A stretch of DNA of 35,642 nucleotides, taken from the NCBI GenBank assembly GCA_031386565.1, contig JANNCL010000267.1:1-35642 (forward strand), given 5' to 3'. A program made the position numbers and the translations under genes. Source of the stretch: Candidatus Omnitrophota bacterium. Its GTDB lineage: Bacteria > Omnitrophota > Gorgyraeia > Zapsychrales > Fredricksoniimonadaceae. The notes beneath the pieces were generated by a model, which searched no databases, had not been told where the DNA came from, and saw nothing but the letters and a program-made list of their open reading frames with translations. Shown here piece after piece: positions 1,372-17,454 of the stretch (position 1 is the stretch's first letter; the number at the start of each line of letters is the position of its first letter).

Positions 1372-2841
1372 TTAGCGGTAACTGATCTTATTTTTTAAGT
1401 CTGGCTGTACATTCGCTTCGAATTTCAATTTGGTGATGAACGCGCCGATCTTTTCATTGCGTTTTTGGGCGCTGACCATGTTCTTGAAATCTTCCTTGTC
1501 CATATCGAATTTCTTTTCATCAATGGCTTCTTTGCTGCTTAAATAAGCGATCGCCGGCCCTTGGCTGGTCTCGATCACGCCGCTTAATTTATTGGCATCA
1601 TTGATGGAGTAGCTGTCCTGCTGGAATTCCGCGATGATGCCTGGCGCATTGATATATTCGCCGCGGGCAAATGATGTTGTCTCATCAAGCTTCAGGCTGA
1701 GTTCTGTGGCAATTGTCTTGAAGTCTTTGGTCTTTAAACCCTCTTTGATGGTGTTAAGCGTTGTTTCGGCTTTGGCTTTTGCAGCGGCATAGCCTTTATC
1801 ATTAAGGGCGGCATCTTTTACTTTCGCGCTGATGCTAGCAAATTCAGGGATGCCGCTTGCTTTCTTTTCTTTGATCTTCACGATCTGCCAGCCGTCCGGT
1901 GCTTCCATCGGGCTTGTGACCTCGCCTGTTTTTAAGGCAAAGATCTTATCGACGAATTCCGGTGACCAGGCGAAGGTAAGTAAGGGTTGTTCTTGGGCAA
2001 AAAAGCCGCTTTCTTTAAGGGCTTGCTGATGCTTGGCCGCGATGGCCGCAAAGTCTGCTTTGGGTGTTAATTCATGCGCGATGGCAACCGCGGTATCTTT
2101 GATGGCTTGTTTCTGTTTAGCATCTGCTTTTTCAGGATACAAAATATGCACATACTGCACATTCACCATGGGCGGTTCCCGGAAGGATTCTTTATGTTGT
2201 GCGAAGAATTTTGTGACGTCGTCGTCCGTAATAGTGGCGTCTTTGGAAAAATCGGCAGGCGTAAAAAGCACGTAGCTTAATTTTATCTTTTCATTGCGTT
2301 TAATATATTCCTGTTTTAGCTCTGCATCGGTAAAAGTGATATTGCCACCGACTTGATCAAGCAATTTACGGACGATGATGGAACGTCTGGCGCCTGCTTC
2401 GAAATCTTTGACCTTGCGGTCGAATATCCCCTGGGATTGGACGATATTCTCATAAATACTCTGGTCGAATTTACCGGCGCTTTGGAAGAAGGGCAATTGC
2501 GCGATATAATCCACGACTTCTTTGTCGGTAGCCGTGATATTACGTTTTTGAGCTTCGCGGCTGAGGATAATGCGGGTCCAAGCTTCACGTTCTAAGTCCA
2601 GTTGCTGTCCCATCTTAAAGAAACGGTCGCCATAGGAGATGATGGCTTGATCGCGGCTGTCTAAATAGGCGCGTTCAAACTCACGCAGCGGGACGGATTT
2701 TCCATACACTTTGCCAGCGGTGTTGATATTATTATCCAGGCGGTAGGCGGTCCCAAAGACCCCGAACGATAAAATATCAATGATCGCGACAGCCCATAAA
2801 ATTTTACGAGATACCCCTTTGTGGCGCAGAATGCTTAGCAT
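1372..2841 (-). CDS. ppiD: PpiD-like membrane-anchored periplasmic chaperone / parvulin-type PPIase
   Basis: N-terminal TM anchor (ILWAVAIIDILSFGVFG), a SurA-N-like region, then a degenerate parvulin-like region (PPMVNVQYVHIL...GWQIVKI). Length and architecture fit PpiD. Confidence 0.7.
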   Translation of the reverse strand: MLSILRHKGVSRKILWAVAIIDILSFGVFGTAYRLDNNINTAGKVYGKSVPLREFERAYLDSRDQAIISYGDRFFKMGQQLDLEREAWTRIILSREAQKRNITATDKEVVDYIAQLPFFQSAGKFDQSIYENIVQSQGIFDRKVKDFEAGARRSIIVRKLLDQVGGNITFTDAELKQEYIKRNEKIKLSYVLFTPADFSKDATITDDDVTKFFAQHKESFREPPMVNVQYVHILYPEKADAKQKQAIKDTAVAIAHELTPKADFAAIAAKHQQALKESGFFAQEQPLLTFAWSPEFVDKIFALKTGEVTSPMEAPDGWQIVKIKEKKASGIPEFASISAKVKDAALNDKGYAAAKAKAETTLNTIKEGLKTKDFKTIATELSLKLDETTSFARGEYINAPGIIAEFQQDSYSINDANKLSGVIETSQGPAIAYLSSKEAIDEKKFDMDKEDFKNMVSAQKRNEKIGAFITKLKFEANVQPDLKNKISYR

Positions 2842-2953: not shown

Positions 2954-5900
2954 ATGCTTCGGAAGCTAGGGTGCCTCTTTTTAACTTTTTTACTATTGCC
3001 ATTTTCCCAACTACAAGCGGATCAAATAGTTCTGCCTGTCCCCGGAACCATGGTACGGCTAAGCCCTGCCTATGAGCCTCCGTTATTAAAAGGTATTAAG
3101 GTCCATCCTGAGAATCCGTTTCGTTTCGAATTCGTTTTGGATCGTGGCGATCAAAAATCTACCGTAGGGGCGGATCGTGATCCGCCCTTTTTAAAAGAAG
3201 AATCCAAAAAATTGATCAAATATTTCCTAGCCGCCTTAACCACCCCCGAAAAAGATCTCTGGGTCAACTTAAGCCCCTACGAAAAAGACCGCATCGTGCC
3301 GGAGAGTTTTGGCCAGACTGAGATGGGCCGCGACCTTTTAGCGCAAGACTATATTTTAAAGCAAATTACGGCAAGTTTGGTTTATCCTGAAGGGGATATT
3401 GGTAAAAGGTTTTGGAAAAAGGTATATGAGTCAGCCGGGAATAAAAATGTTCCTGTTAATACGTTCAATAAAGTATGGATCATGCCTGATAAGGCGGAGG
3501 TGTATGAGAATACAAAGACCGGCACGGCGTATATTGTGCGGTCCAGTCTAAAAGTATTGACTGAGCAAGACTATCTTGCCACCAACAAAAACACAACCGT
3601 AGGGGCCGATCTTGTGTCGGCCCGCCATGCCGGGCGGACACAAGGTCCGCCCCTACGAAATACCGATAATTCCAAGATCATACGTGACCTCGTCATCCCA
3701 GAATTAACCAAAGAAATAAACCAAGGCCAAAACTTCGCCCAATTACGTCAAGTTTACAACAGCCTGATACTTGCCACCTGGTACAAAAAGAAGATCAAAG
3801 ACAGCATCCTCTCACAAGTATATGCCGATAAGAACAAGATCAAAGGCACAGAATACGATCAAAGCATTATTTCCCCTCCCCTTGTGGGAGGGGCCAGGGG
3901 AGGGGTACGATCCCAAGGACAAAAAGACGAGTCCCCCCTCCCTAACCCTCCCCACGATGGGGGAGGGAAGAATGACGTCGAAGCCATCTACGCCCGCTAT
4001 TTACAAGCCTTCAAAAAAGGCGCCTACAATTATATCAAAGATACTGACTTGCCTAACGGCCGGACAGTACCTACGAAATATTTCTCCGGCGGGGCGCGAT
4101 TTGATATGGCGATGATGACGACAACGGAAGAGTTAAGTGATCTACATCTTAGCCAAGCGGTGATCGTTCAGGCAAATATGGAACAAGCCATTTTTAAGGA
4201 ACCTGATGCTGCCATGTCGCATGACGAATCAATGCATAAATTACTTCTTGAGGCTATGTTATGGTATATGAACAGAGATCCTGAGCTGTCTCAACAAATG
4301 GTGGTTGCTCATCATGAGGAAGATCTTGTAAGAAAGTTTTTTCTTGGCAGAAAGGTTTTAAATGTTGCGCCGGAAGAAATTTCTTTTTCGGATATTCTAT
4401 TGGAGCAGAATATCATGACGGATATGAGGCAAAAAGGTATCGATGCAAGGGCTCTAGCTCCCGTAAACAAGCATCCACTTTGGGAAAAAGAAAGTTTCTA
4501 TCAAGGAGTGGTGGAAGATATGCATATGATCAATGCTGACACATTTGATGATATTGTCATTGCTAGATTATTTGATCCTGATTATTGGGAAACTACTGTA
4601 GGGAAGCAATTAGGCCAGACGGTAGAACAAAGAAGGGCTCTTTATCCCAGGATCGCAAAAGAATTAAAACGGGTACTTAGAGATAAAGGCAGGCTTTTTA
4701 TGCTTTCTATGGACGGCAATCCGTATTTATTCGAAGCTTTAAGGCACGAAGGGTTTAAGGTTTTTTCTTTAAAGTTAGATAAGAACAATCAGTTATTTGG
4801 CACGCTTTTAATTAACGACAAAACCATTATAGAATACGGAAATGGTGTTGGAAGAACAGACTTCGGCAGTAATCAAGCCATGCTTTCGCTTGCGGACAGT
4901 ATGGCATGGGGGGATGCGAAGGAAGATGCGGGGGTATATTTCAGGCTTAAGGCATTTTTGGATAAGGATGATCTTAAAGATCTGCAGCAATATGATCCGC
5001 AACAGCGCGCGCAATTGATCGCGCTTTGGTTGAAGGTGCGTTGGGCGAAAGCATTTCCTACGGATCATTGGCGATTATTAGAATCCGTCAGAAGCATCAT
5101 CGTAAATTATTTGTTAAAGAATACGTTATTGACGCACAGGGAACGCAATGAGGGGGCGATAGGGGAATTCGCTAAGTTTGGGATGCCCCGCTTTCAAGCG
5201 GAGATGCTGCTGCATTGGGCAGAGGATGTATTTAATGGCAAGTCGGATGCTCGATTCACGTTCCATCAATGGGCGGTGGCGTCCCATGTAGGGGATGCGC
5301 AAAATGCCGTGGATAAATTTGGTGTCATTGTTGGGCTTAATGAAGAGCAGAAAAATGAATTGATCCAGTATCTTTTAGGACAGAGTGAAAGGCTGTACCG
5401 TGATGCCGAAGAACAACAAAAGTTCGACGCTATTTGGCTGGCAGTCAAGTACAAATGGTCCGAGGATTCTTTTAAGCGGTTCATGAATGAACATATGATG
5501 ACGCATATCGATCCCGAAGCGCGTCAGATCTTAAGGCAGGAGGCTTTGGAAGATCTCCCGATGCAGGGACGGGAGAGGTTATATACCCGTCAACAGATCG
5601 CGGACATGGCCAATGATGCGGGCGTGCTTTGGAATCGTTGGGAGTGGATTAAGGCCAGGCAGCCTGCGATCGAGCGGATGGCGGCGCCGTTTAATGGTGT
5701 TGAAGCAAGAAAACGGGCCATTATTTTTGGAAGATTGCTGGAGCTTAATCTAGCACAACAGAAAGACGTAGAGAGTTATCTTTTAGGCGCCCTCGAAAGG
5801 GTATTTGTTGACAATACAGAGCAGCAAAAATTTGATGCTGTTTGGCTGGCAGTGAAATATGGATGGACAGGAGAATCGCTGGTTCGGTTCGTTCAAAATA

Positions 5901-8900
5901 AAATAATTTTCCACATCGATCCAAAGGCTGCGGGATTCTTAAGGAGGGAAGTCCCAGATCACCTTAGGATCTTCCGTTCTGAGAAGTCTGGCGGCTTCTC
6001 TGATGGGGAGATCTTCGCTATGGCTCATGATGCCGGGTTACTTTATGAAACGCGTTGGGAGGTAAAGCATATTAATCAGGAGTCTCAACACGTGATGCAG
6101 GTCATTGAAGAGAAGCTGGCCAAATCTGTCCCGTTAACCCGCGCGCCTAAGATCGAACCGGAGGTCACACAAAGGATCCAGCAGGCCGAGCAAAAGGCCG
6201 ACCTGTTTTTCGAAGATTTGCATGCGTTAAGCACCCTGCCTCCGGCGCAGTTCGTAGAAGAGTTATTGCAGAAGATGGTTATCCAAGAGCCTAATTTTGA
6301 GCGTATCCTTTCAGGGCAGGCGGCCTTGCCGGATAATTGGCAGGACGATGTTGCTGCGTTCGCGAAACGTCTGGATCAACGCTGGCAAGCGTGGGGTGCA
6401 GATGGGATATCCATGCAGCAAAGATTTGGCTCGATCTATTCAGTGATGGCCTTGAGGATCGGAGCCGATTTATTTGCTACTTACGAGCAGGCGGTATTGA
6501 CACACGCATGGTTTTTTGCTTTTGTTTCAGCTGCTCCTCCGGAGGCTATGGTTGAAGCATTGCACATGATCACATCCTCGCATATCATCCATTTAAGGCT
6601 TCATGGGATGCATCCATATTCAGATAAGTTGTTTGAAAGGCCAGTGAGTTTAGATGTTGATACTCTTTATGGAAGAAAGGGCAGGAGTGTTGGTGTTTTA
6701 AGAAATTACTTGGAAGCATTCAAGCCCCTAAGGTCAAAGGTATTTGACCAACGTTTTGAATATGATTTTTTATGGGGTCTGGTGATGGGATCAGACCCAT
6801 CCCCACTTGATCCCAGATATGCGGAGAATCATTCTAACGATCAGGTTAATGTTCTTAAGCAGGGCAAGTCTGATGATGAATTCTTTAGGAATTCATTAAG
6901 AGAAGCTGTCGAACAGCTCGACATTGATCCGCGAGAGTTTGAATTGTTGTTATTGGAAGCGTTAGCTATTTCAGATCAAGAATGGGAAGCGATGGGCTAT
7001 GTTTCTCCTTATAAAATTAAGATGGGACATGAAATCAGTGATTTTTACATTGCTGCCGCGCAGAAAAAACATGTTCTACCCACTGGGCCTGTATCCTTAA
7101 TGAGCCCAGATCCTGGATTGCTTGAATTCAGAGGGGTCTTTTTAAAGAACTACAATAAGGTTTTCGAAGGAAGGGAAAGTTTAAGGGACTACTACATAGA
7201 ATCCTGGTCCGCGCTGTACCCCAGTCTGGCGGGAATAAAAGATCGTGCTCAGACTGCCGACGATAAGGCGGTTTCTGAGAGTTCATGGTTGGATCAGATC
7301 ATTAAGGATCCCAAGATTGACAAGATCAGTGAAGGTGTTCATGTGCGTCGGATCACTTTTTTGAATACGGCTTTGGTTATGGAAATATGGTTATCCGATA
7401 CACGGCAACATGGGATAGACGCTGTTGTTGTCAATGAAGGATTCCCATCTGCTAAAAAGAAAGAATTCAGGAATATCCCTAGACGCTTGGTTTTTGACAA
7501 TAGCGCTGGTATTGAAAAGCGAAAAAGCATGGTGTATACGCTTATGGATTTCTTAGCCGGTGAAATTCTTGTGCAGCGCATCGCGGCCAATCACAAAGCT
7601 TCCAGAGAACTAGAGATCCAGCATAAGGATGAGTATTTGGATGAGAAAGTAAGTGCGGATCTTCAAGGACTTATTGGATTTGGGAAGTTTATTAAGACGA
7701 TTGTTTATATGATTTTTGGCAAAACAGGTTTAATGTACGAGAATCTTTTAAATACAAAATCGAGGTTTTTAAAAGCGGTTTTACGCTTAAATGATACGGA
7801 TTTTTTAAAACAGAAGCCGCAGCTGGGACGAACTTATCAGGTTGTATTTCGTGAGCAGTATTATGGCAAGATATCTATTTCGATGGATGATCGAGATCAG
7901 TTTTATGTTGTTTTGATAGAACAAATGTACGGTCGACCATTATGGAGGCGTATCCCCATAGCACAATATGATCATTTATCGGATATTATAAAAGTTACCC
8001 TTGATTCTATAGAGCAAGAGATCGGGCAGACAGCGGTTCCAGGACAGGGGGTAGATCGGGCTATGGTACAAGGTCAGGGGGCCGACCGTATTAGAAGAGG
8101 ATTGTTGGTGAGTATTGCTTCATCACTATCGTTTTCTCCCCAAGCGGCTGTGATCGAATTTCCTACATATGATGAAGAAAGGGTTACGGGGCAAGTTCCC
8201 GGTTATGTACAAAGCGTGATCGGCAGATGGTTCCCCAGGTATAAAATTATCCTTACACAGGGTGGGGATCAGATTTTATGGGATGAAAGAACCAAAACGC
8301 TGCGTTTTAACAGGGAGCGTTTTGAGGGAATGAACGATGATCAGCTATTTGCGGCCTTGGCTGCAGATACGGCATATTATGGAGTGAAACTTTTTGCTAA
8401 AGATAATGACGCGCTGATGCAAATGGGTTTTATAGGTGCGGAGACGATCGCGCGGGCAAAGAAAATGCTTGTTTTTGACCATCTAGTGTCAGATGGCAAG
8501 ATACCTGTTACTTCAACAATGCAGGAGGAGCAGCTGCTTAGCAAGGCTTTTCTGGCCTTGATCGAACAGCGTCATAAGCTGGTGGATTTTGAAGGGTACA
8601 GCCTTGAAAAGGCCACGCTTGAAAAACCGCTTGTGGATAATAACGGTTTTTTGCAGCAGAGGGTTGTAAGCATTGCTCTGGAAAACTTGAATACGCGCTT
8701 AAAGAAACGCGTTTTAGCAAAGGTTGTCATGGATCTTCAGAGCGGAAAGAATAAAGTTACTTTCATGCCGATGGAAGATAGTGCTCAAATCAGTTCCATT
8801 GACTCAAAGCGCGGGGGTATTGATCTTACTAGTGACAAGATGGATTTAAAGCTTAAAAGCGATGGTGGGGCTATCCGGTTCAAGATGGATCCGGCTCAAT

Positions 8901-9019
8901 TAAAAGCGTTGCAAGAAGCTCCGGGTTTGATCCCTTCTATTGTTAACATGCGCACTTTGCCCGCAGGACAGGAAGGCATCAACATCTTAAAGTTGTTTTT
9001 AGGGGTTCAGGCTCCTTAG
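2954..9019 (+). CDS. Giant secreted modular protein, paralog 1 (2021 aa): conserved N-module + orphan ~1500-aa cargo + conserved C-terminal tail; function unknown
   Basis: Uninterrupted 6066-nt ORF with signal peptide MLRKLGCLFLTFLLLPFSQLQA. The N-module aligns with 11889-14906 (45/58 identical over KYFLAALT..YPE) and with 35400-35642 (36/39 identical over LPVPGTMV..LD+G). The tail GGIDLTSDKMDLKLK..GLIPSIV aligns with the paralog 2 tail. Confidence 0.9.
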   Translation: MLRKLGCLFLTFLLLPFSQLQADQIVLPVPGTMVRLSPAYEPPLLKGIKVHPENPFRFEFVLDRGDQKSTVGADRDPPFLKEESKKLIKYFLAALTTPEKDLWVNLSPYEKDRIVPESFGQTEMGRDLLAQDYILKQITASLVYPEGDIGKRFWKKVYESAGNKNVPVNTFNKVWIMPDKAEVYENTKTGTAYIVRSSLKVLTEQDYLATNKNTTVGADLVSARHAGRTQGPPLRNTDNSKIIRDLVIPELTKEINQGQNFAQLRQVYNSLILATWYKKKIKDSILSQVYADKNKIKGTEYDQSIISPPLVGGARGGVRSQGQKDESPLPNPPHDGGGKNDVEAIYARYLQAFKKGAYNYIKDTDLPNGRTVPTKYFSGGARFDMAMMTTTEELSDLHLSQAVIVQANMEQAIFKEPDAAMSHDESMHKLLLEAMLWYMNRDPELSQQMVVAHHEEDLVRKFFLGRKVLNVAPEEISFSDILLEQNIMTDMRQKGIDARALAPVNKHPLWEKESFYQGVVEDMHMINADTFDDIVIARLFDPDYWETTVGKQLGQTVEQRRALYPRIAKELKRVLRDKGRLFMLSMDGNPYLFEALRHEGFKVFSLKLDKNNQLFGTLLINDKTIIEYGNGVGRTDFGSNQAMLSLADSMAWGDAKEDAGVYFRLKAFLDKDDLKDLQQYDPQQRAQLIALWLKVRWAKAFPTDHWRLLESVRSIIVNYLLKNTLLTHRERNEGAIGEFAKFGMPRFQAEMLLHWAEDVFNGKSDARFTFHQWAVASHVGDAQNAVDKFGVIVGLNEEQKNELIQYLLGQSERLYRDAEEQQKFDAIWLAVKYKWSEDSFKRFMNEHMMTHIDPEARQILRQEALEDLPMQGRERLYTRQQIADMANDAGVLWNRWEWIKARQPAIERMAAPFNGVEARKRAIIFGRLLELNLAQQKDVESYLLGALERVFVDNTEQQKFDAVWLAVKYGWTGESLVRFVQNKIIFHIDPKAAGFLRREVPDHLRIFRSEKSGGFSDGEIFAMAHDAGLLYETRWEVKHINQESQHVMQVIEEKLAKSVPLTRAPKIEPEVTQRIQQAEQKADLFFEDLHALSTLPPAQFVEELLQKMVIQEPNFERILSGQAALPDNWQDDVAAFAKRLDQRWQAWGADGISMQQRFGSIYSVMALRIGADLFATYEQAVLTHAWFFAFVSAAPPEAMVEALHMITSSHIIHLRLHGMHPYSDKLFERPVSLDVDTLYGRKGRSVGVLRNYLEAFKPLRSKVFDQRFEYDFLWGLVMGSDPSPLDPRYAENHSNDQVNVLKQGKSDDEFFRNSLREAVEQLDIDPREFELLLLEALAISDQEWEAMGYVSPYKIKMGHEISDFYIAAAQKKHVLPTGPVSLMSPDPGLLEFRGVFLKNYNKVFEGRESLRDYYIESWSALYPSLAGIKDRAQTADDKAVSESSWLDQIIKDPKIDKISEGVHVRRITFLNTALVMEIWLSDTRQHGIDAVVVNEGFPSAKKKEFRNIPRRLVFDNSAGIEKRKSMVYTLMDFLAGEILVQRIAANHKASRELEIQHKDEYLDEKVSADLQGLIGFGKFIKTIVYMIFGKTGLMYENLLNTKSRFLKAVLRLNDTDFLKQKPQLGRTYQVVFREQYYGKISISMDDRDQFYVVLIEQMYGRPLWRRIPIAQYDHLSDIIKVTLDSIEQEIGQTAVPGQGVDRAMVQGQGADRIRRGLLVSIASSLSFSPQAAVIEFPTYDEERVTGQVPGYVQSVIGRWFPRYKIILTQGGDQILWDERTKTLRFNRERFEGMNDDQLFAALAADTAYYGVKLFAKDNDALMQMGFIGAETIARAKKMLVFDHLVSDGKIPVTSTMQEEQLLSKAFLALIEQRHKLVDFEGYSLEKATLEKPLVDNNGFLQQRVVSIALENLNTRLKKRVLAKVVMDLQSGKNKVTFMPMEDSAQISSIDSKRGGIDLTSDKMDLKLKSDGGAIRFKMDPAQLKALQEAPGLIPSIVNMRTLPAGQEGINILKLFLGVQAP
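3164..3187 (+). repeat. Single REP-like unit (GTAG + 8-bp hairpin) inside the paralog 1 CDS
   Basis: GTAG GGGCGGAT CGTG ATCCGCCC: perfect 8-bp stem with a 4-nt loop. It is translated as TVGADRDPP. Confidence 0.7.
3599..3656 (+). repeat. 58-nt REPIN-like inverted doublet (two hairpins) read in frame inside the paralog 1 N-module
   Basis: GTAG GGGCCGAT CTTGT GTCGGCCC GCCATGCC GGGCGGAC ACAAG GTCCGCCC CTAC. The outer ends are GTAG/CTAC and the two loops are complementary. It encodes VGADLVSARHAGRTQGPPL. Confidence 0.85.
3873..3967 (+). repeat. C-tract/G-tract triple-hairpin cluster inserted in frame in paralog 1 only
   Basis: Three arm pairs: CCCCTCCC (3873-3880) / GGGAGGGG (3886-3893) with loop CTTGT; GGGAGGGG (3898-3905) / CCCCTCCC (3935-3942); CCCTCCCC (3946-3953) / GGGGAGGG (3960-3967). 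It encodes SPPLVGGARGGVRSQGQKDESPLPNPPHDGGG. Paralog 2 is 24 codons shorter here. Confidence 0.8.
5336..6070 (+). repeat. Internal tandem duplication (~136-aa unit, 2 copies) within the paralog 1 cargo
   Basis: Unit 1 starts at LNEEQKNELIQYLLG (5336) and unit 2 at LNLAQQKDVESYLLG (5744). 22/37 residues are identical over EQQKFDA[IV]WLAVKY..HIDP.A, and both units end with DAG[VL]L...RWE[WV]K. Confidence 0.8.
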
Positions 9020-11888: not shown

Positions 11889-14800
11889 ATGCGGAAAACG
11901 ATATTTAGCCTAGTTTTGGTCAGCTTCTTGATCAGTAACATCAATATTCCTTTGCTTAGGGCAGGGGAAGTTGTTGTGCCCATCATGCCCAAGCCGGGCA
12001 CCATGGTTTCTTTAAGTCCTATCTTTACCCCGGCTTATCTTAAAGGGATTGTTATTCATCCCGACAATGCCCTGCAATTCGACTTTTTGATCAACAAAGG
12101 CGATGGAAATTTAAACACTCAAGAAAAGAATCAGGAATATACTAAACTAGTCAAATACTTCCTGGCGGCACTCACCGTCCCGGATCAAGACCAATGGGTG
12201 AACTTAAGCCCGTATGAAAAAGACCGCATTATTAAAGATGACTTCGGCAAGACCGAAATGGGCCGCGACCTTTTGGGTCAAGATTATTTGTTAAAGCAGA
12301 TCACCTCATCTTTAATGTATCCCGAATCTGGTTTAGGCAAAAATTTCTGGGATAAAGTCTATGCCAAAGCCCAAGAAGAATTTGGCAACACCAATATCCC
12401 CGTCAACACATTCAACAAAGTCTGGATCGTGCCAGATCAAGCCATTGTTTATGAAAGCGGCAATATTGCGTATGTAGGGCGCAGTCATTTGAAAGTGATG
12501 TTGGAAGAAGATTATCTTGCCATCAACAAAAATAAATCCGTAGGGGAGGACCTTGTGTCCTCCCGCCATGCCGGGCCGATACAAGATCGGCCCCTACAAA
12601 ATACCGATCAAGCACAAATAATCCGTGAACTCATCCTCCCCGAATTAGAAAAAGAAGTCAACCAAGGCAAAAATTTCGCCCAATTACGCCAAGTTTTTAG
12701 CGGCATGATCCTAGCCACTTGGTATAAAAAAGCATTGAAAGAATCTTTGTTAGCCAAAATTTACGCAGATAAAAATAAAACTAAAGGAACGGGATATACA
12801 AAAAGCATTCTCAACCGAAGCCAACCTGGGAAACAACCAAACGACATCGAGCTTGTGTACCAGCAATACCTCCAAGCCTTTAAGAAAGGCGTATACAACT
12901 ATATTAAAGAGGACACAGACAAATACACACATCAACCCATTCCCAGAAAATATTTTGCGGGTGGGGTGAATGGCATTCCAAAAAATGTTCTAGAAGTACG
13001 CCAAGGCACAAGCCCGGCAATGACGGCGGAAGTAAACACCCTTGATGCCGCGCAAGTTAGTTTAGATAGTAAAAAAGCAGATGCGGCGATGAATATTCAA
13101 GAAATACAATCTTACAGCCAATGGGTAGTTCGGATATTGACGACCGGTGTACCGTTGACATTTACAACTGTTTCAGCTCAGGCAGCACAATTTCAAGAAT
13201 TTGTATCAACATATCCTTGGTTAGCAACGGGTTCTGCAATAGGGCTGACGGCTGCAACATGGTTTGGGTATTATTTGTGGAGTATGTTTCATACGTTAAA
13301 GGGAATGGGGCGTGCTTATGACCAGAAAATAGTGAGCAAGGAACAATTTCGTGCGTGGCTAGATGAATATCTTCCCACACAAAGCGACGCAATATTGATT
13401 GGCTTATTGAACCACCGACAGATGGCAGTTCGGGAAAAATCTGCGGAAATATTAGTGCGTTTGAAAACTAGAAGGGCTTCTCAAGAAGAGGTGATCCAAG
13501 CATTGTTGGGAAGACTTGGCGATTATGATCCTGTTCATCAGAGGGCATTATTAGGATTGAAGGAATTAGGAGTAAGCCAAGAACTCCTATTGAGCGAATA
13601 TCATGTCATTGTCTGGAATGCAGATAACTCAACATTTATGCGCTTGGGAGGAGACTCCGAACGCTCCTCTTTTGAGTCTGTTAACAAAGCCATCAAATTT
13701 TTTAGTGAAATAGGTGAACAAGGCAGGGATGAATTAGTTGCTATAGGTAAAAATCATCCAAGTGAAGGTGTTCGAAAGCGAGCGGGAGAAATTGTATCCA
13801 GGATAGTATGGGATTATGGGACATGGGGTTCAACTTATACTTTGGATGATGTCGAAATGGCAATAAAAATGTTAGGAAGAATGGGGTCGGTAGGGTTGTA
13901 TGAATTATCCAGAATAAAAGGGGAAGATCTTGACCGCAGGGTTATTGAAATGGCGAAAAATCAAATAGACGCGGCGATGGGGGAGAATTTGAGTTATAAG
14001 GGCAAGGACTTTGAAATCAGCTCGCAAGGACTATTGATTGGCACAATATATTCAATTTATTTTCTTTTACGTGAAAGGGCTATTGCTTCGAAGCATCCAA
14101 CGATTGCATTTGACCTAGATGGAACGATTGCTTTTTGGAACGGGAGTGAATATCTGATAAGACCCGGAATCGAAGAACAAATCCGTAAGCTTAAACAAAG
14201 GGGTTTTCGTATAGTTTTATGGACGTCAGCACCAAGAGAGCATGTTCGTGTTAACTTTATTGAAAAGAATTCTGCAATTGCTAATTTTTTTGATTTAGTT
14301 ATTTCCAGAGAAAGTTTCAGCCCTTTAATAGAAAATGAGCAAGCAATGAAAGGCGTTTATGCAAGATTTATGAAGATTCCAGTAAGTGATTTTATGGAAA
14401 GAATTCATAGAACATATTTTGCGACTAACAATGATTGGGGATTTAAGGATTTTTTGTTGCTGGGATACAAGTTCTTAGTTGATGATACACCGCTCAAGAT
14501 TTTAAAAGGTCAGCCTTATCCTCTAATCCAAGAGTACAAGATGAGGTACATGCAGGCGGGATTTTTCTACACTAATTCTCAAGGAGTGAGTCTGGGTGAC
14601 GATTATCCGATAGGAAATCTAGCTGATACGATTCAAGAAAAAATTGAGCAAGCTGACAAATCATTTGGTGGTGGTACTGATGTTGATGTGGCTGGAAATG
14701 TATTAGATGCGGCGATGAAAGATCCCGGCGGTATTGACATGAACTCCGCTAATTTGGATTTGCAGATTAAGCGTGATGGTAAAGGGGTGCCTTTGCCGCT

Positions 14801-14906
14801 TTCTCAGCAAGATATGGCGCTGTTGTCTCGTATTGAAGGATTTGTTCCGCGTATCATTGCAATCAAACCTGCCTCTTCATTGCCGATCTTTAGTAAAATA
14901 CAGTAA
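11889..14906 (+). CDS. Secreted modular protein, paralog 2 (1005 aa): conserved N-module + TM segment + HEAT-like repeats + HAD-superfamily phosphatase domain + conserved tail
   Basis: Signal peptide, then an N-module homologous to paralog 1. Hydrophobic helix WLATGSAIGLTAATWFGYYLW. HEAT-like units (HRQMAVREKSAEILVRL, HPSEGVRKRAGEIVSRI). HAD motifs: FDLDGT (14109-14126), LWTSA, VDDTP (~14478-14492). Tail: GGIDMNSANLDLQIK..GFVPRII. Confidence 0.9.
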   Translation: MRKTIFSLVLVSFLISNINIPLLRAGEVVVPIMPKPGTMVSLSPIFTPAYLKGIVIHPDNALQFDFLINKGDGNLNTQEKNQEYTKLVKYFLAALTVPDQDQWVNLSPYEKDRIIKDDFGKTEMGRDLLGQDYLLKQITSSLMYPESGLGKNFWDKVYAKAQEEFGNTNIPVNTFNKVWIVPDQAIVYESGNIAYVGRSHLKVMLEEDYLAINKNKSVGEDLVSSRHAGPIQDRPLQNTDQAQIIRELILPELEKEVNQGKNFAQLRQVFSGMILATWYKKALKESLLAKIYADKNKTKGTGYTKSILNRSQPGKQPNDIELVYQQYLQAFKKGVYNYIKEDTDKYTHQPIPRKYFAGGVNGIPKNVLEVRQGTSPAMTAEVNTLDAAQVSLDSKKADAAMNIQEIQSYSQWVVRILTTGVPLTFTTVSAQAAQFQEFVSTYPWLATGSAIGLTAATWFGYYLWSMFHTLKGMGRAYDQKIVSKEQFRAWLDEYLPTQSDAILIGLLNHRQMAVREKSAEILVRLKTRRASQEEVIQALLGRLGDYDPVHQRALLGLKELGVSQELLLSEYHVIVWNADNSTFMRLGGDSERSSFESVNKAIKFFSEIGEQGRDELVAIGKNHPSEGVRKRAGEIVSRIVWDYGTWGSTYTLDDVEMAIKMLGRMGSVGLYELSRIKGEDLDRRVIEMAKNQIDAAMGENLSYKGKDFEISSQGLLIGTIYSIYFLLRERAIASKHPTIAFDLDGTIAFWNGSEYLIRPGIEEQIRKLKQRGFRIVLWTSAPREHVRVNFIEKNSAIANFFDLVISRESFSPLIENEQAMKGVYARFMKIPVSDFMERIHRTYFATNNDWGFKDFLLLGYKFLVDDTPLKILKGQPYPLIQEYKMRYMQAGFFYTNSQGVSLGDDYPIGNLADTIQEKIEQADKSFGGGTDVDVAGNVLDAAMKDPGGIDMNSANLDLQIKRDGKGVPLPLSQQDMALLSRIEGFVPRIIAIKPASSLPIFSKIQ
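12540..12597 (+). repeat. 58-nt REPIN-like inverted doublet read in frame inside the paralog 2 N-module (same site as 3599-3656)
   Basis: GTAG GGGAGGAC CTTGT GTCCTCCC GCCATGCC GGGCCGAT ACAAG ATCGGCCC CTAC. Both stems are perfect. It encodes VGEDLVSSRHAGPIQDRPL. Confidence 0.85.
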
Positions 14907-16350: not shown

Positions 16351-16504
16351 CCCGCATTTAGCAAAGGCAAAATGCGCCTTCAGGGGCGATTGTCGCAACT
16401 TGTTGCGATATGAGCGGTTATCCAGACAAGCGAACAAACCGTTGCTTGCAACAAATTGTGCTAACGTCATCGACGCTAGGACAGTTTCTATTGCAAAATG
16501 CGGG
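16351..16504. repeat. 154-nt segment bracketed by 14-nt inverted repeats with internal palindromes (MITE-like or structured leader)
   Basis: CCCGCATTTAGCAA (16351-16364) versus TTGCAAAATGCGGG (16491-16504), 13/14 complementary. Internal palindromes: TCGCAACTTGTTGCGA (16393-16408) and GTTGCTTGCAAC (16441-16452). A proximal partner AAATGCG lies at 16370-16376. Confidence 0.4.
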
Positions 16505-16538
16505 ACAAATCAACAAATATTTAAGGTTAGGTTCTTTT

Positions 16539-17420
16539 ATGAAGCATATTACAATAAAATCTCCCGCTAAATTGAATTTGGTTTTAGATATATTAGGTAA
16601 GCGTCAGGATGGTTTCCATGAATTGCGGACCATCTTTGAGCGTATCGATCTGCATGATTCTATCACGTTAAAAAACCGGGCGGACGGGAAGGTCAAGGTA
16701 ATCTGTGCGCACCCGCATGTGCCTAAGGGGCCTACTAATTTGGTGGTTAAAGTCGCACAAAGACTCCGGCAGGAGTTTGGGATCACTCAAGGGGTCACCA
16801 TTGAGATCCAAAAACGCATCCCGGTTGCGGCAGGTCTGGCCGGAGGGTCAAGCAATGCGGCTTCCGTTTTGATGGGGCTAAACTGCTTGTGGCAGTTGAA
16901 GTTATCGCAAGAGCAACTCGTTTTGCACGCTTCCGCGATTGGTTCGGATGTGGCGTTCTTTATTCACGATACCCCCTATGCTTTAGGCACCGGCCGGGGT
17001 GAGCAGATCAAGGTTTTAGGGATCCGCACCAAACTATGGCATGTGCTTGTGACCCCGAAGGTTAAGGTGTTGACTAAGGATGTTTTTAAGGCCTTAAATG
17101 CTAAACCGACAGGGGGTAAAAAGCGGTTGACATATAATAGGGATAATGTTAGTATTTTGCTTCCCTTTTTGAGGGAGTGTAAGCTTGTCCAGATCGGGCA
17201 GTCTTTGGCCAATGATCTGGAGCCGGCCATTTTGTCTTTGCGGCCAGATTTTATTTTGCTAAAGGAAAAATTAAAAGGGGGGAATCCTCTTGGTGTATGT
17301 TTTTCCGGAAGCGGTCCGTCGGTATATGCGTTGGCAAGTTCCAAAGCGCATGCACTGGCGATCAAAGCAAAATTTGATAAGCGTTACGTTCAGGTTTTTG
17401 TTGTTGGAACATTACTGTAG
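16539..17420 (+). CDS. ispE: 4-diphosphocytidyl-2-C-methyl-D-erythritol kinase
   Basis: IKSPAKLNL, the GHMP-kinase motif PVAAGLAGGSSNAA and GSGPSVYAL. The track start at 16410 adds 43 non-homologous residues, so ATG 16539 is preferred. Confidence 0.9.
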   Translation: MKHITIKSPAKLNLVLDILGKRQDGFHELRTIFERIDLHDSITLKNRADGKVKVICAHPHVPKGPTNLVVKVAQRLRQEFGITQGVTIEIQKRIPVAAGLAGGSSNAASVLMGLNCLWQLKLSQEQLVLHASAIGSDVAFFIHDTPYALGTGRGEQIKVLGIRTKLWHVLVTPKVKVLTKDVFKALNAKPTGGKKRLTYNRDNVSILLPFLRECKLVQIGQSLANDLEPAILSLRPDFILLKEKLKGGNPLGVCFSGSGPSVYALASSKAHALAIKAKFDKRYVQVFVVGTLL

Positions 17421-17423
17421 TAT

Positions 17424-17454
17424 CATGGCGGGACGACACAAGGTCGTCCCCTAC
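17424..17454 (+). repeat. Intergenic single REP-like unit (half of the 58-nt element)
   Basis: CATGGC GGGACGAC ACAAG GTCGTCCC CTAC. It has the same spacer fragment, the same ACAAG loop and the same CTAC end as the right half of the in-CDS doublets, with a different but self-complementary stem. Confidence 0.8.

Follow-up and report, generated by a model that had tools for sequence, protein, structure and literature searches.

What accounts for a pair of hairpins that lies inside two coding genes, with stems that differ between the genes and yet stay paired in each? The question is raised by a stretch of 35,642 nt from a Candidatus Omnitrophota bacterium (contig JANNCL010000267.1 of assembly GCA_031386565.1). 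We call this whole stretch the window and give positions along it; L-numbers denote fetched loci and P-numbers homologous proteins. Two paralogous genes of the window, paralog 1 and paralog 2, each contain a doublet of palindromes, which an earlier note, made from the sequence, had taken as the mark of selection on nucleic-acid structure or, alternatively, of repeated element replacement at a fixed site. We consider it likely that each doublet is an intragenic heterodimer of GTAG-tagged repetitive extragenic palindromic (REP) elements, that the linker segment holding it was shared between the paralogs, probably by gene conversion, and that whole units were then replaced. The element is an example of a known phenomenon and not a new structured nucleic acid.

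The two doublets have one scaffold and different stems. The paralog 2 doublet, GTAG GGGAGGAC CTTGT GTCCTCCC GCCATGCC GGGCCGAT ACAAG ATCGGCCC CTAC, has exactly the sequence that was claimed for it, and its counterpart in paralog 1 reads GTAG GGGCCGAT CTTGT GTCGGCCC GCCATGCC GGGCGGAC ACAAG GTCCGCCC CTAC. A unit is 25 nt long and comprises GTAG, an 8-bp G+C-rich stem (GGG and five variable bases), the 5-nt loop CTTGT, and the complementary arm. Two such units are inverted in each doublet, with the GTAG tags outermost and an overlap at a palindromic CATG. The units of the window, a single intergenic one included, carry a GSCATG tail after the second arm. All 38 scaffold bases (GTAG, the GGG/CCC stem ends, both loops, the spacer, and CTAC) are the same in both paralogs, while 9 of the 20 core bases differ; all four stems are nevertheless paired, the sole exception being one G-T wobble in the left stem of paralog 1. 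Read on the opposite strand, the right unit of paralog 2 equals the left unit of paralog 1 save for one base, at the wobble position, as had been noticed. The placement at a homologous codon position also holds: both doublets fall in the same columns of a global protein alignment, and the surrounding flanks are ungapped. The translations of the open reading frames (ORFs) agree with the divergent peptides quoted earlier, the predicted in-frame translation of the paralog 2 doublet being VGEDLVSSRHAGPIQDRPL.

Chance is excluded as the source of the doublet pattern, which lies far beyond it. The unit pattern GTAGGGGN5CTTGTN5CCC is matched five times in the window, where 0.01 matches are expected, and none of 100 shuffles reached that number. 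Four of these matches make up the two doublets, and the fifth is the single unit on the minus strand (Table 1). Folded as single-stranded DNA, the window elements reach z-scores of about -4.5 to -7.0, the doublets among them -4.9 to -7.0; the paralog 2 doublet forms two hairpins and the paralog 1 doublet one long bulged hairpin. As RNA, both doublets prefer the long form, which is bulged in paralog 2, with minimum free energies of -32 and -47 kcal/mol and z-scores of -4.6 and -8.3. The paralog 1 doublet can be drawn as a long hairpin like that of a REPIN (REP doublet forming hairpin) or as two hairpins. Two reading frames of the doublet, from GTA and from the last G of the tag, are without a fixed stop, and the TAG frame alone is closed. 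Because the reverse complement of the doublet has the same scaffold, two frames are stop-free in either orientation.

Table 1. Host genes, GTAG units, and candidate shared tract in the window.
Feature	Positions	Strand or setting	Detail
Paralog 1, host gene	2954-9019	+	2021 aa
Variant GTAG unit, 4-nt loop, paralog 1	3164-3189	+	GTAG GGGCGGAT CGTG ATCCGCCC
Head-to-head REP heterodimer, paralog 1	3599-3656	inside ORF 2954-9019	sequence, pattern match, folding
Left unit, paralog 1 doublet	3599-3623	+	core CCGAT, one G-T wobble
Spacer, paralog 1 doublet			GCCATGCC
Right unit, paralog 1 doublet	3632-3656	-	core CGGAC
Paralog 2, host gene	11889-14906	+	1005 aa
Candidate gene-conversion or younger tract	12468-12705 (paralog 1: 3527-3766)	+	third-position identity peak, doublet excluded
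Head-to-head REP heterodimer, paralog 2	12540-12597	inside ORF 11889-14906	sequence, pattern match, folding
Left unit, paralog 2 doublet	12540-12564	+	core AGGAC
Spacer, paralog 2 doublet	12565-12572		GCCATGCC
Right unit, paralog 2 doublet	12573-12597	-	core CCGAT
Single intergenic unit with GCCATG tail	17424-17454 (unit 17430-17454)	-	GTAG GGGACGAC CTTGT GTCGTCCC

Every feature of the doublet is covered by the description of the GTAG-tagged REP superfamily, which was reported from more than 80 species in 8 phyla (Di Nocera et al. 2013, PMC3733652). GTAG REPs have stems of 6-9 bp in which G-T pairs occur and in which alternative complementary residues are found; they form homo- and heterodimers arranged head-to-head, tail-to-tail, or head-to-tail; and their GTAG ends provide stop codons to the adjoining gene (PMC3733652). 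The superfamily includes the bacterial interspersed mosaic elements (BIMEs), the Stenotrophomonas maltophilia GTAG (SMAG) elements, and REPINs (PMC3733652; Bertels and Rainey 2011, PMC3116915). The window units are like it in having the tag beside a short G+C-rich perfect palindrome, in occurring singly and as inverted head-to-head dimers, in their heterodimers, in complementary stem changes between subfamilies, and in G-T pairs. Single copies of the superfamily lie just past stop codons, and so does the single unit of the window. In all five canonical window units GTAG stands directly 5' of the stem, and the 25-nt length, within the 20-40 bp of the superfamily, the 8-bp stem, the 5-nt loop, and the inverted heterodimers agree with the family. 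Inverted association is seen in the two head-to-head heterodimers of the window and in a pair at L028 with its tags facing inward. Folding gives a divided picture for the long hairpin of the REPIN type: paralog 1 adopts it as DNA and as RNA, paralog 2 adopts it as RNA but forms two separate hairpins as DNA, and a heterodimeric composition weakens it.

There are also differences. The host belongs to Omnitrophota, a phylum outside the published survey, and the unit differs in its GSCATG tail and in the overlap of its dimers at CATG. GTAG REPs are mostly extragenic, often just 3' of a gene, whereas two of the three loci with canonical units in the window are intragenic. Intragenic siting does not exclude membership, because intragenic copies are documented exceptions: over half of them are dimers or groups encoding 20-30 amino acids, and most are found in Opitutus terrae (PMC3733652). 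Our placement is made by description and at the level of the superfamily, which has 24 numbered families, and the unit sequence was not found in the supplements checked for these 24. One supplement holds a Roseiflexus Y1-like protein whose N-terminus, GRPQGVAPT, is a near relative of the unit and whose catalytic residues look degenerate.

Other known systems fit less well. Rickettsia palindromic elements (RPEs) are alike in being selfish palindromes that sit in frame in coding genes and are translated in tolerant loops. Elements of the RPE-1 type differ in exceeding 100 bp and in having an unrelated sequence, and no RPE has the architecture of the window unit; RPE-4 and RPE-6 have been assigned to the CGTC and not the GTAG type of REP (PMC3733652). 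A miniature inverted-repeat transposable element was rejected, since the sequences read around the copies in the window, L164, L165, and L028 have no flanking direct repeat or target-site duplication. Rfam at gathering thresholds returned tRNA-Gln only for the window, and a literature search of full texts for the sequence of the unit and for the peptides it typically encodes found no relevant paper.

The stems truly covary, but as members of a mobile repeat family rather than as part of the gene. We scanned species-representative genomes with the unit and its tail as the query, without requiring the cores to pair, and obtained 43 loci. These come from Chloroflexota, Acidobacteriota, Bacteroidota (Hymenobacter, Tannerella), Kiritimatiellia, Verrucomicrobiota, Omnitrophota, Gemmatimonadota, Planctomycetota, Thermodesulfobacteriota, and Proteobacteria. 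These loci and the window together supply 93 units: 70 form Watson-Crick pairs throughout the five-position core, and a further 13 do so except for a single G-T pair. When only the 38 distinct units are taken, pairing is found in 96.4% of cells, as against 73% in shuffles. Covariation scores 0.58 in these units, 0.14 in shuffles, of which none of 500 scored as high, and about 0.1 in slid controls; all five free stem pairs show changes on both sides. The hairpin is under structural constraint, as a property of the repeat family. The 23 units that are not perfectly Watson-Crick paired are mismatched intermediates, and therefore compensatory change or palindrome-templated correction operates across the history of the family. 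The same types of unit recur between genes and across phyla, AGGAC and CGGAC units being present in unrelated genomes too.

Heterodimers of such units are common. In metagenome contigs the exact doublet with a GSCATGSC spacer had no match, and at least 120 loci were obtained once spacers of 0-30 nt were allowed. The fetched loci and the window contain at least 133 head-to-head dimers, of which 91, among the matches listed, combine two different units. GTAG precedes 323 of 328 CTTGT-loop GGG...CCC hairpins with a 5-nt loop in the fetched loci, a proportion biased by the presence of GTAG in the retrieval pattern. CTTGT-type units also form regular arrays (L027 2258-2734; L020 5023-5386; L001 1-134; L024 5386-5550), as in a gammaproteobacterial metagenome-assembled genome (MAG) with five to six heterodimers spaced by about 96 nt; these arrays resemble the clustered REP blocks of the literature.

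This distribution bears on the proposal that the doublet is a functional nucleic-acid structure specific to its locus, such as a translational pause, an mRNA stability element, or a regulatory site, kept by compensatory mutation since the paralogs split. The doublet hairpins are very stable as RNA, the scaffold is invariant while the peptide diverges, and REPs elsewhere affect mRNA stability and termination (PMC3733652). Against this, the same units are found intergenically and, across phyla, in settings that have nothing to do with these genes; the doublet is missing from most of the closest relatives of each paralog, and its arrangement varies among orthologs (single, head-to-head, or with tags inward). 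Furthermore, the CCGAT core occurs at another position and on the other strand, which points to unit exchange, and no Rfam family matches. We regard a function tied to this locus as very improbable. Of the claim of selection on structure, the part that stands is covariation independent of coding; its attachment to this codon position does not stand.

The doublets lie in a hypervariable linker of a large protein family. In paralog 2 the N-terminus is predicted to be signal-peptide-like, the N-module is conserved, and the middle of the protein has weak matches to HEAT and HAD (hydrolase). Paralog 1 has this N-module and a C-terminal GGIDL module in common with paralog 2 and belongs to a different subfamily. 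The N-module family has 781 matches at E <= 1e-5, the named ones almost all from Omnitrophota. Its members are built of a signal-peptide-like start, an N-module of about 360 residues, a variable middle, and a conserved C-terminal block of about 60 residues from GGID(L/M). The N-module matched no Pfam domain and gave no significant match in a fold search against the PDB. When 120 homologs are aligned, the doublet maps to a linker, 8-60 residues long and unalignable, that is bounded by the conserved blocks LKVMLEEDYLAL.K and SQIVREI.IPELEKEVNEG. An AlphaFold model of residues 1-450 of paralog 2 (mean predicted local distance difference test score, pLDDT, 77) gives residues 221-240 a pLDDT of 50-59 and the adjoining blocks on both sides at least 90, and it sets the doublet site in a coil between predicted helices 206-221 and 239-259. 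The host site is a permissive loop that is probably disordered. The "ordinary low-complexity linker" that the earlier note had named as the contrary case describes in part this host site, which is hypervariable and of low pLDDT.

Several kinds of repeat have entered this linker. Many homolog linkers look like the translations of palindromic repeats of different types (VIPAKAGIQ..., VILSAAKDL..., VGVGSKP...RAGLEPAPT, PNVLVGD...). At the DNA level, the linker of L167 is a GTAG head-to-head dimer of another stem and loop type and that of L168 a long unrelated palindrome. Related units are found in four further linkers: one forward CCGAT unit in L164, a head-to-head dimer of an AGGAC-like and a CGGAC unit in L165, a CGGAC and an AGGAC unit with tags facing inward in L028 (140-2842, another member of the N-module/GGID(L/M) protein family), and a decayed AGGAC unit, with GCAG replacing GTAG, in L166. 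The L164 gene (9708-11646) is the closest homolog of paralog 2 (P0001, 71% identity) and is called as three consecutive short genes of 95, 254, and 295 aa, which reflects either a broken gene or assembly frame errors. Compared with window positions 12540-12610, L165 3387-3450 has a spacer of 6 nt instead of 8, which puts its right unit in another frame, and two additional bases past CTAC; after the doublet the downstream frame and the QN..Q flank are regained. These length changes look like paired indels that keep the gene open.

A selected linker peptide (VGxDLVSxRHAG...) with incidental hairpins is hardly credible as the reason for the likeness of the two doublets. It is true that the two paralogs agree in residue at 13 of the 20 aligned codons, which comprise the 19-residue insert and the codon spanning its 3' end. 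However, 11 of these 13 codons are identical in nucleotides, against 44% elsewhere in the N-module, and the differing residues map exactly onto the stem cores. The right unit of L165, in its other frame, gives RADIKSAPT and not GRTQGPPL, and the region is predicted to be disordered.

The colonization of the linker by several unrelated repeat families in different genomes also raises the possibility that each paralog received its doublet independently, at a preferred or the only tolerated site, with no exchange between the paralogs. The unit combinations differ between the paralogs, and there is a precedent in the different REPs found near the same recB site in two Xanthomonas species (PMC3733652). 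Yet the doublets occupy exactly the same aligned codon and have an identical 8-nt spacer, and their immediate flanks are similar (NKNxx before, xNTD after) in a linker that is unalignable across the family. Synonymous identity is also raised for about 100 nt on each side. Independent insertion is unlikely on this evidence.

The segment around the doublet is more alike between the paralogs than the rest of the N-module. Identity between the paralogs is 70% in the conserved block that precedes the linker and 68% in the one that follows it, and each paralog has nearer relatives: paralog 2 is 80-83% identical to P0001, P0040, P0003, and others, and paralog 1 is 78-81% identical to P0056, P0091, P0063, and others. 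With the doublet left out, third-position codon identity reaches 0.63 in the flanks 12465-12704, compared with 0.39 over the conserved N-module; the share of conserved residues with identical codons rises from 44% to 68% in the doublet flanks. Because these flanks were picked after a sliding window had been seen, we ran a position-free scan with permutation. Its best windows are 40 codons at 12507-12684 (p = 0.02) and 60 codons spanning the tract of Table 1 (p = 0.009); windows of 30 and 80 codons were not significant. This suggests, on the codon pattern, that some 200-250 bp including the doublet may have been copied between the paralogs. The flanks of the doublet are 67-77% identical between the paralogs, so the 38 unchanged scaffold bases are not neutral (probability well below 1e-3 by simple multiplication).

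A doublet inherited vertically since the paralog duplication, its scaffold held by purifying selection, would be an improbable alternative. Units of the AGGAC and CGGAC types stand in the same linker of four other Omnitrophota genomes of 45-54% G+C, the decayed copy of L166 looks vertically inherited alongside that of L028, and the flank after the L165 doublet, QNMTQ, resembles QNTDQ of the window. The nearest relatives of each paralog, however, mostly have unrelated linkers and no doublet, so that vertical inheritance needs many losses; with most of both subfamilies lacking the doublet, these would have to be very many and independent. The raised synonymous identity around the doublet would also be left unexplained.

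The position of the CCGAT core argues for the exchange of whole units. This core is on the left and forward in paralog 1, on the right and reversed in paralog 2, and single and forward in L164. Its appearance twice by point mutation would take 4 and 6 substitutions. Point mutation is implausible because the core lies on opposite sides and strands in the two doublets, which indicates unit exchange; replacement by, or conversion with, a CCGAT-type unit circulating in the lineage would be far more economical. Aligned in reverse, the doublets differ at 5 of 58 bases, and aligned directly at 9. Inversion of the whole doublet as the sole event was rejected, since the asymmetric spacer runs the same way in each. 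The earlier suggestion of element replacement at a fixed site is therefore closer to the evidence than selection on structure is, and it needs two additions, a hypervariable permissive linker and segment sharing between the paralogs.

We propose that the units are non-autonomous single-strand DNA elements that would be handled by REP-associated tyrosine (Y1/HUH) transposases, as in other bacteria, and that the pairing of their stems could be reinforced by palindrome-templated correction during replication. Doublets would settle in the disordered, hypervariable linker of this secreted Omnitrophota protein family, where in-frame copies may survive selection, because two of three frames are stop-free in either orientation, and be translated as about 19 neutral residues. 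The linker segment with its doublet would then have been transferred between the distant paralogs, probably by gene conversion, and later the lineage-specific CCGAT subtype may have replaced a whole unit, the left one in paralog 1 and the right one in paralog 2. The apparently "compensatory" differences would accordingly be swaps among ready-made subtypes that were already paired. Stepwise compensatory evolution in place is unlikely.

Known REP transposases have determinants that match the conservation seen here. The group 3 enzymes assayed on perfect palindromes depend critically on the loop sequence, and the GTAG tag affects their cleavage (Corneloup et al. 2021, PMC8266576). A stem mismatch strongly lowers cleavage, replacement of a whole stem by its complement has only a moderate effect, and cleavage occurs at CT or CA beside the hairpin (PMC8266576). 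From these determinants, an invariant tag and loop with cores that vary but stay paired is the expected pattern. The measured determinants of recognition by REP-associated tyrosine transposases (RAYT/TnpA_REP; PMC8266576; Messing et al. 2012, PMC3479197) thus match the conservation pattern of the window, whose central CATG gives a CA on both strands of the doublet; it is from this pattern that we infer a link to the window family.

A scan of 28 ORFs of the window yielded no Y1_Tnp match. A scan of the window and 163 loci for the Y1 transposase motif had one match, in L018, which Pfam confirmed as Y1_Tnp. There an IS200-like Y1_Tnp gene (1682-2281) lies between inverted copies, at 1593+ and 2297-, of a different GTAG repeat (GTAG GCCGGGTC TTTA GACCCGGC), with further copies at 1455- and 2678+. 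This segment (1455-2700) of a Solibacteraceae MAG is a textbook REPtron. A CTTGT-type unit lies 1.6 kb from it. As a candidate enzyme for the CTTGT type this transposase is uninformative, because its flanking repeats are of a different GTAG family.

Several points weigh against a shared REP heterodimer with later unit replacement. The gene-conversion signal is modest: two window sizes give p of about 0.01-0.02, and two others are not significant. Subfamily-specific residues persist near the doublet. The equal orientation of the spacers means that a simple inversion of the whole doublet cannot account for the moved CCGAT unit. A Y1 transposase gene is absent from the window, so that mobilization by such an enzyme is something we infer, and the only Y1_Tnp in the fetched loci is flanked by a different GTAG repeat. 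Just five canonical units and one variant are visible in 35.6 kb.

A stronger version holds that the doublet is an active recombination hot spot, at which nicking of the hairpins by a tyrosine transposase would start short conversion tracts between distant paralogs and drive unit swaps. The tract of raised identity is centered on the doublet, the CCGAT unit is placed differently in the two paralogs, and related units occupy the linker of at least five genomes. We consider such activity quite doubtful. If it were true, diversification would go on continually at one exposed linker of a large, multi-copy Omnitrophota surface-protein family.

Read as an intragenic REP heterodimer, the locus has several consequences. 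It explains away an apparent covariation within coding sequence, and it extends GTAG-tagged REPs, together with their in-frame intragenic form, to Omnitrophota. It identifies one scaffold, GTAG-GGG-N5-CTTGT-N5'-CCC, that is common to genomes of many phyla, and it draws attention to one protein linker where palindromic repeats have landed repeatedly, which makes for a natural experiment, if a small one, on the turnover of intragenic repeats. For annotation, strings such as VGxDLVSxRH or GRxQGxPL in hypothetical proteins are best taken as translated repeats and not as motifs.

Further units and palindromes are present in the window, which holds in total five canonical units and one variant at four sites. 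The single intergenic unit and the variant were absent from the earlier note. The former, the sole extragenic unit of the window, begins 4 nt past the stop codon of a GHMP-kinase ORF (16410-17420) and 40 nt before tRNA-Gln; the two doublets and the variant sit within long ORFs. The variant is in frame as TVGADRDPPF in another variable loop of paralog 1 and corresponds to a gap in paralog 2.

Paralog 1 contains a second G+C-rich nested palindrome at 3873-3965: CCCCTCCC-CTTGT-GGGAGGGG, then GGGGAGGGG ... CCCCCCTCCC, then CCCTCCCC-ACGAT-GGGGGAGGG. It is in frame, adds about 24 residues within SPPLVGGARGGVRSQGQKDESPLPNPPHDGGGK, and is missing in paralog 2. The CTTGT loop is common to it and the doublet units, and it is without the GTAG tag; its RNA fold has -60.9 kcal/mol and a z-score of -3.8. 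Elsewhere, a perfect 15-bp inverted repeat flanked by runs of A and T (AAAAAAGCAGGGTTC ... GAACCCTGCTTTTTT) at 1326-1367 separates the convergent genes for a redoxin (790-1326) and a SurA-like protein (1372-2841, minus strand), and looks like a bidirectional intrinsic terminator.

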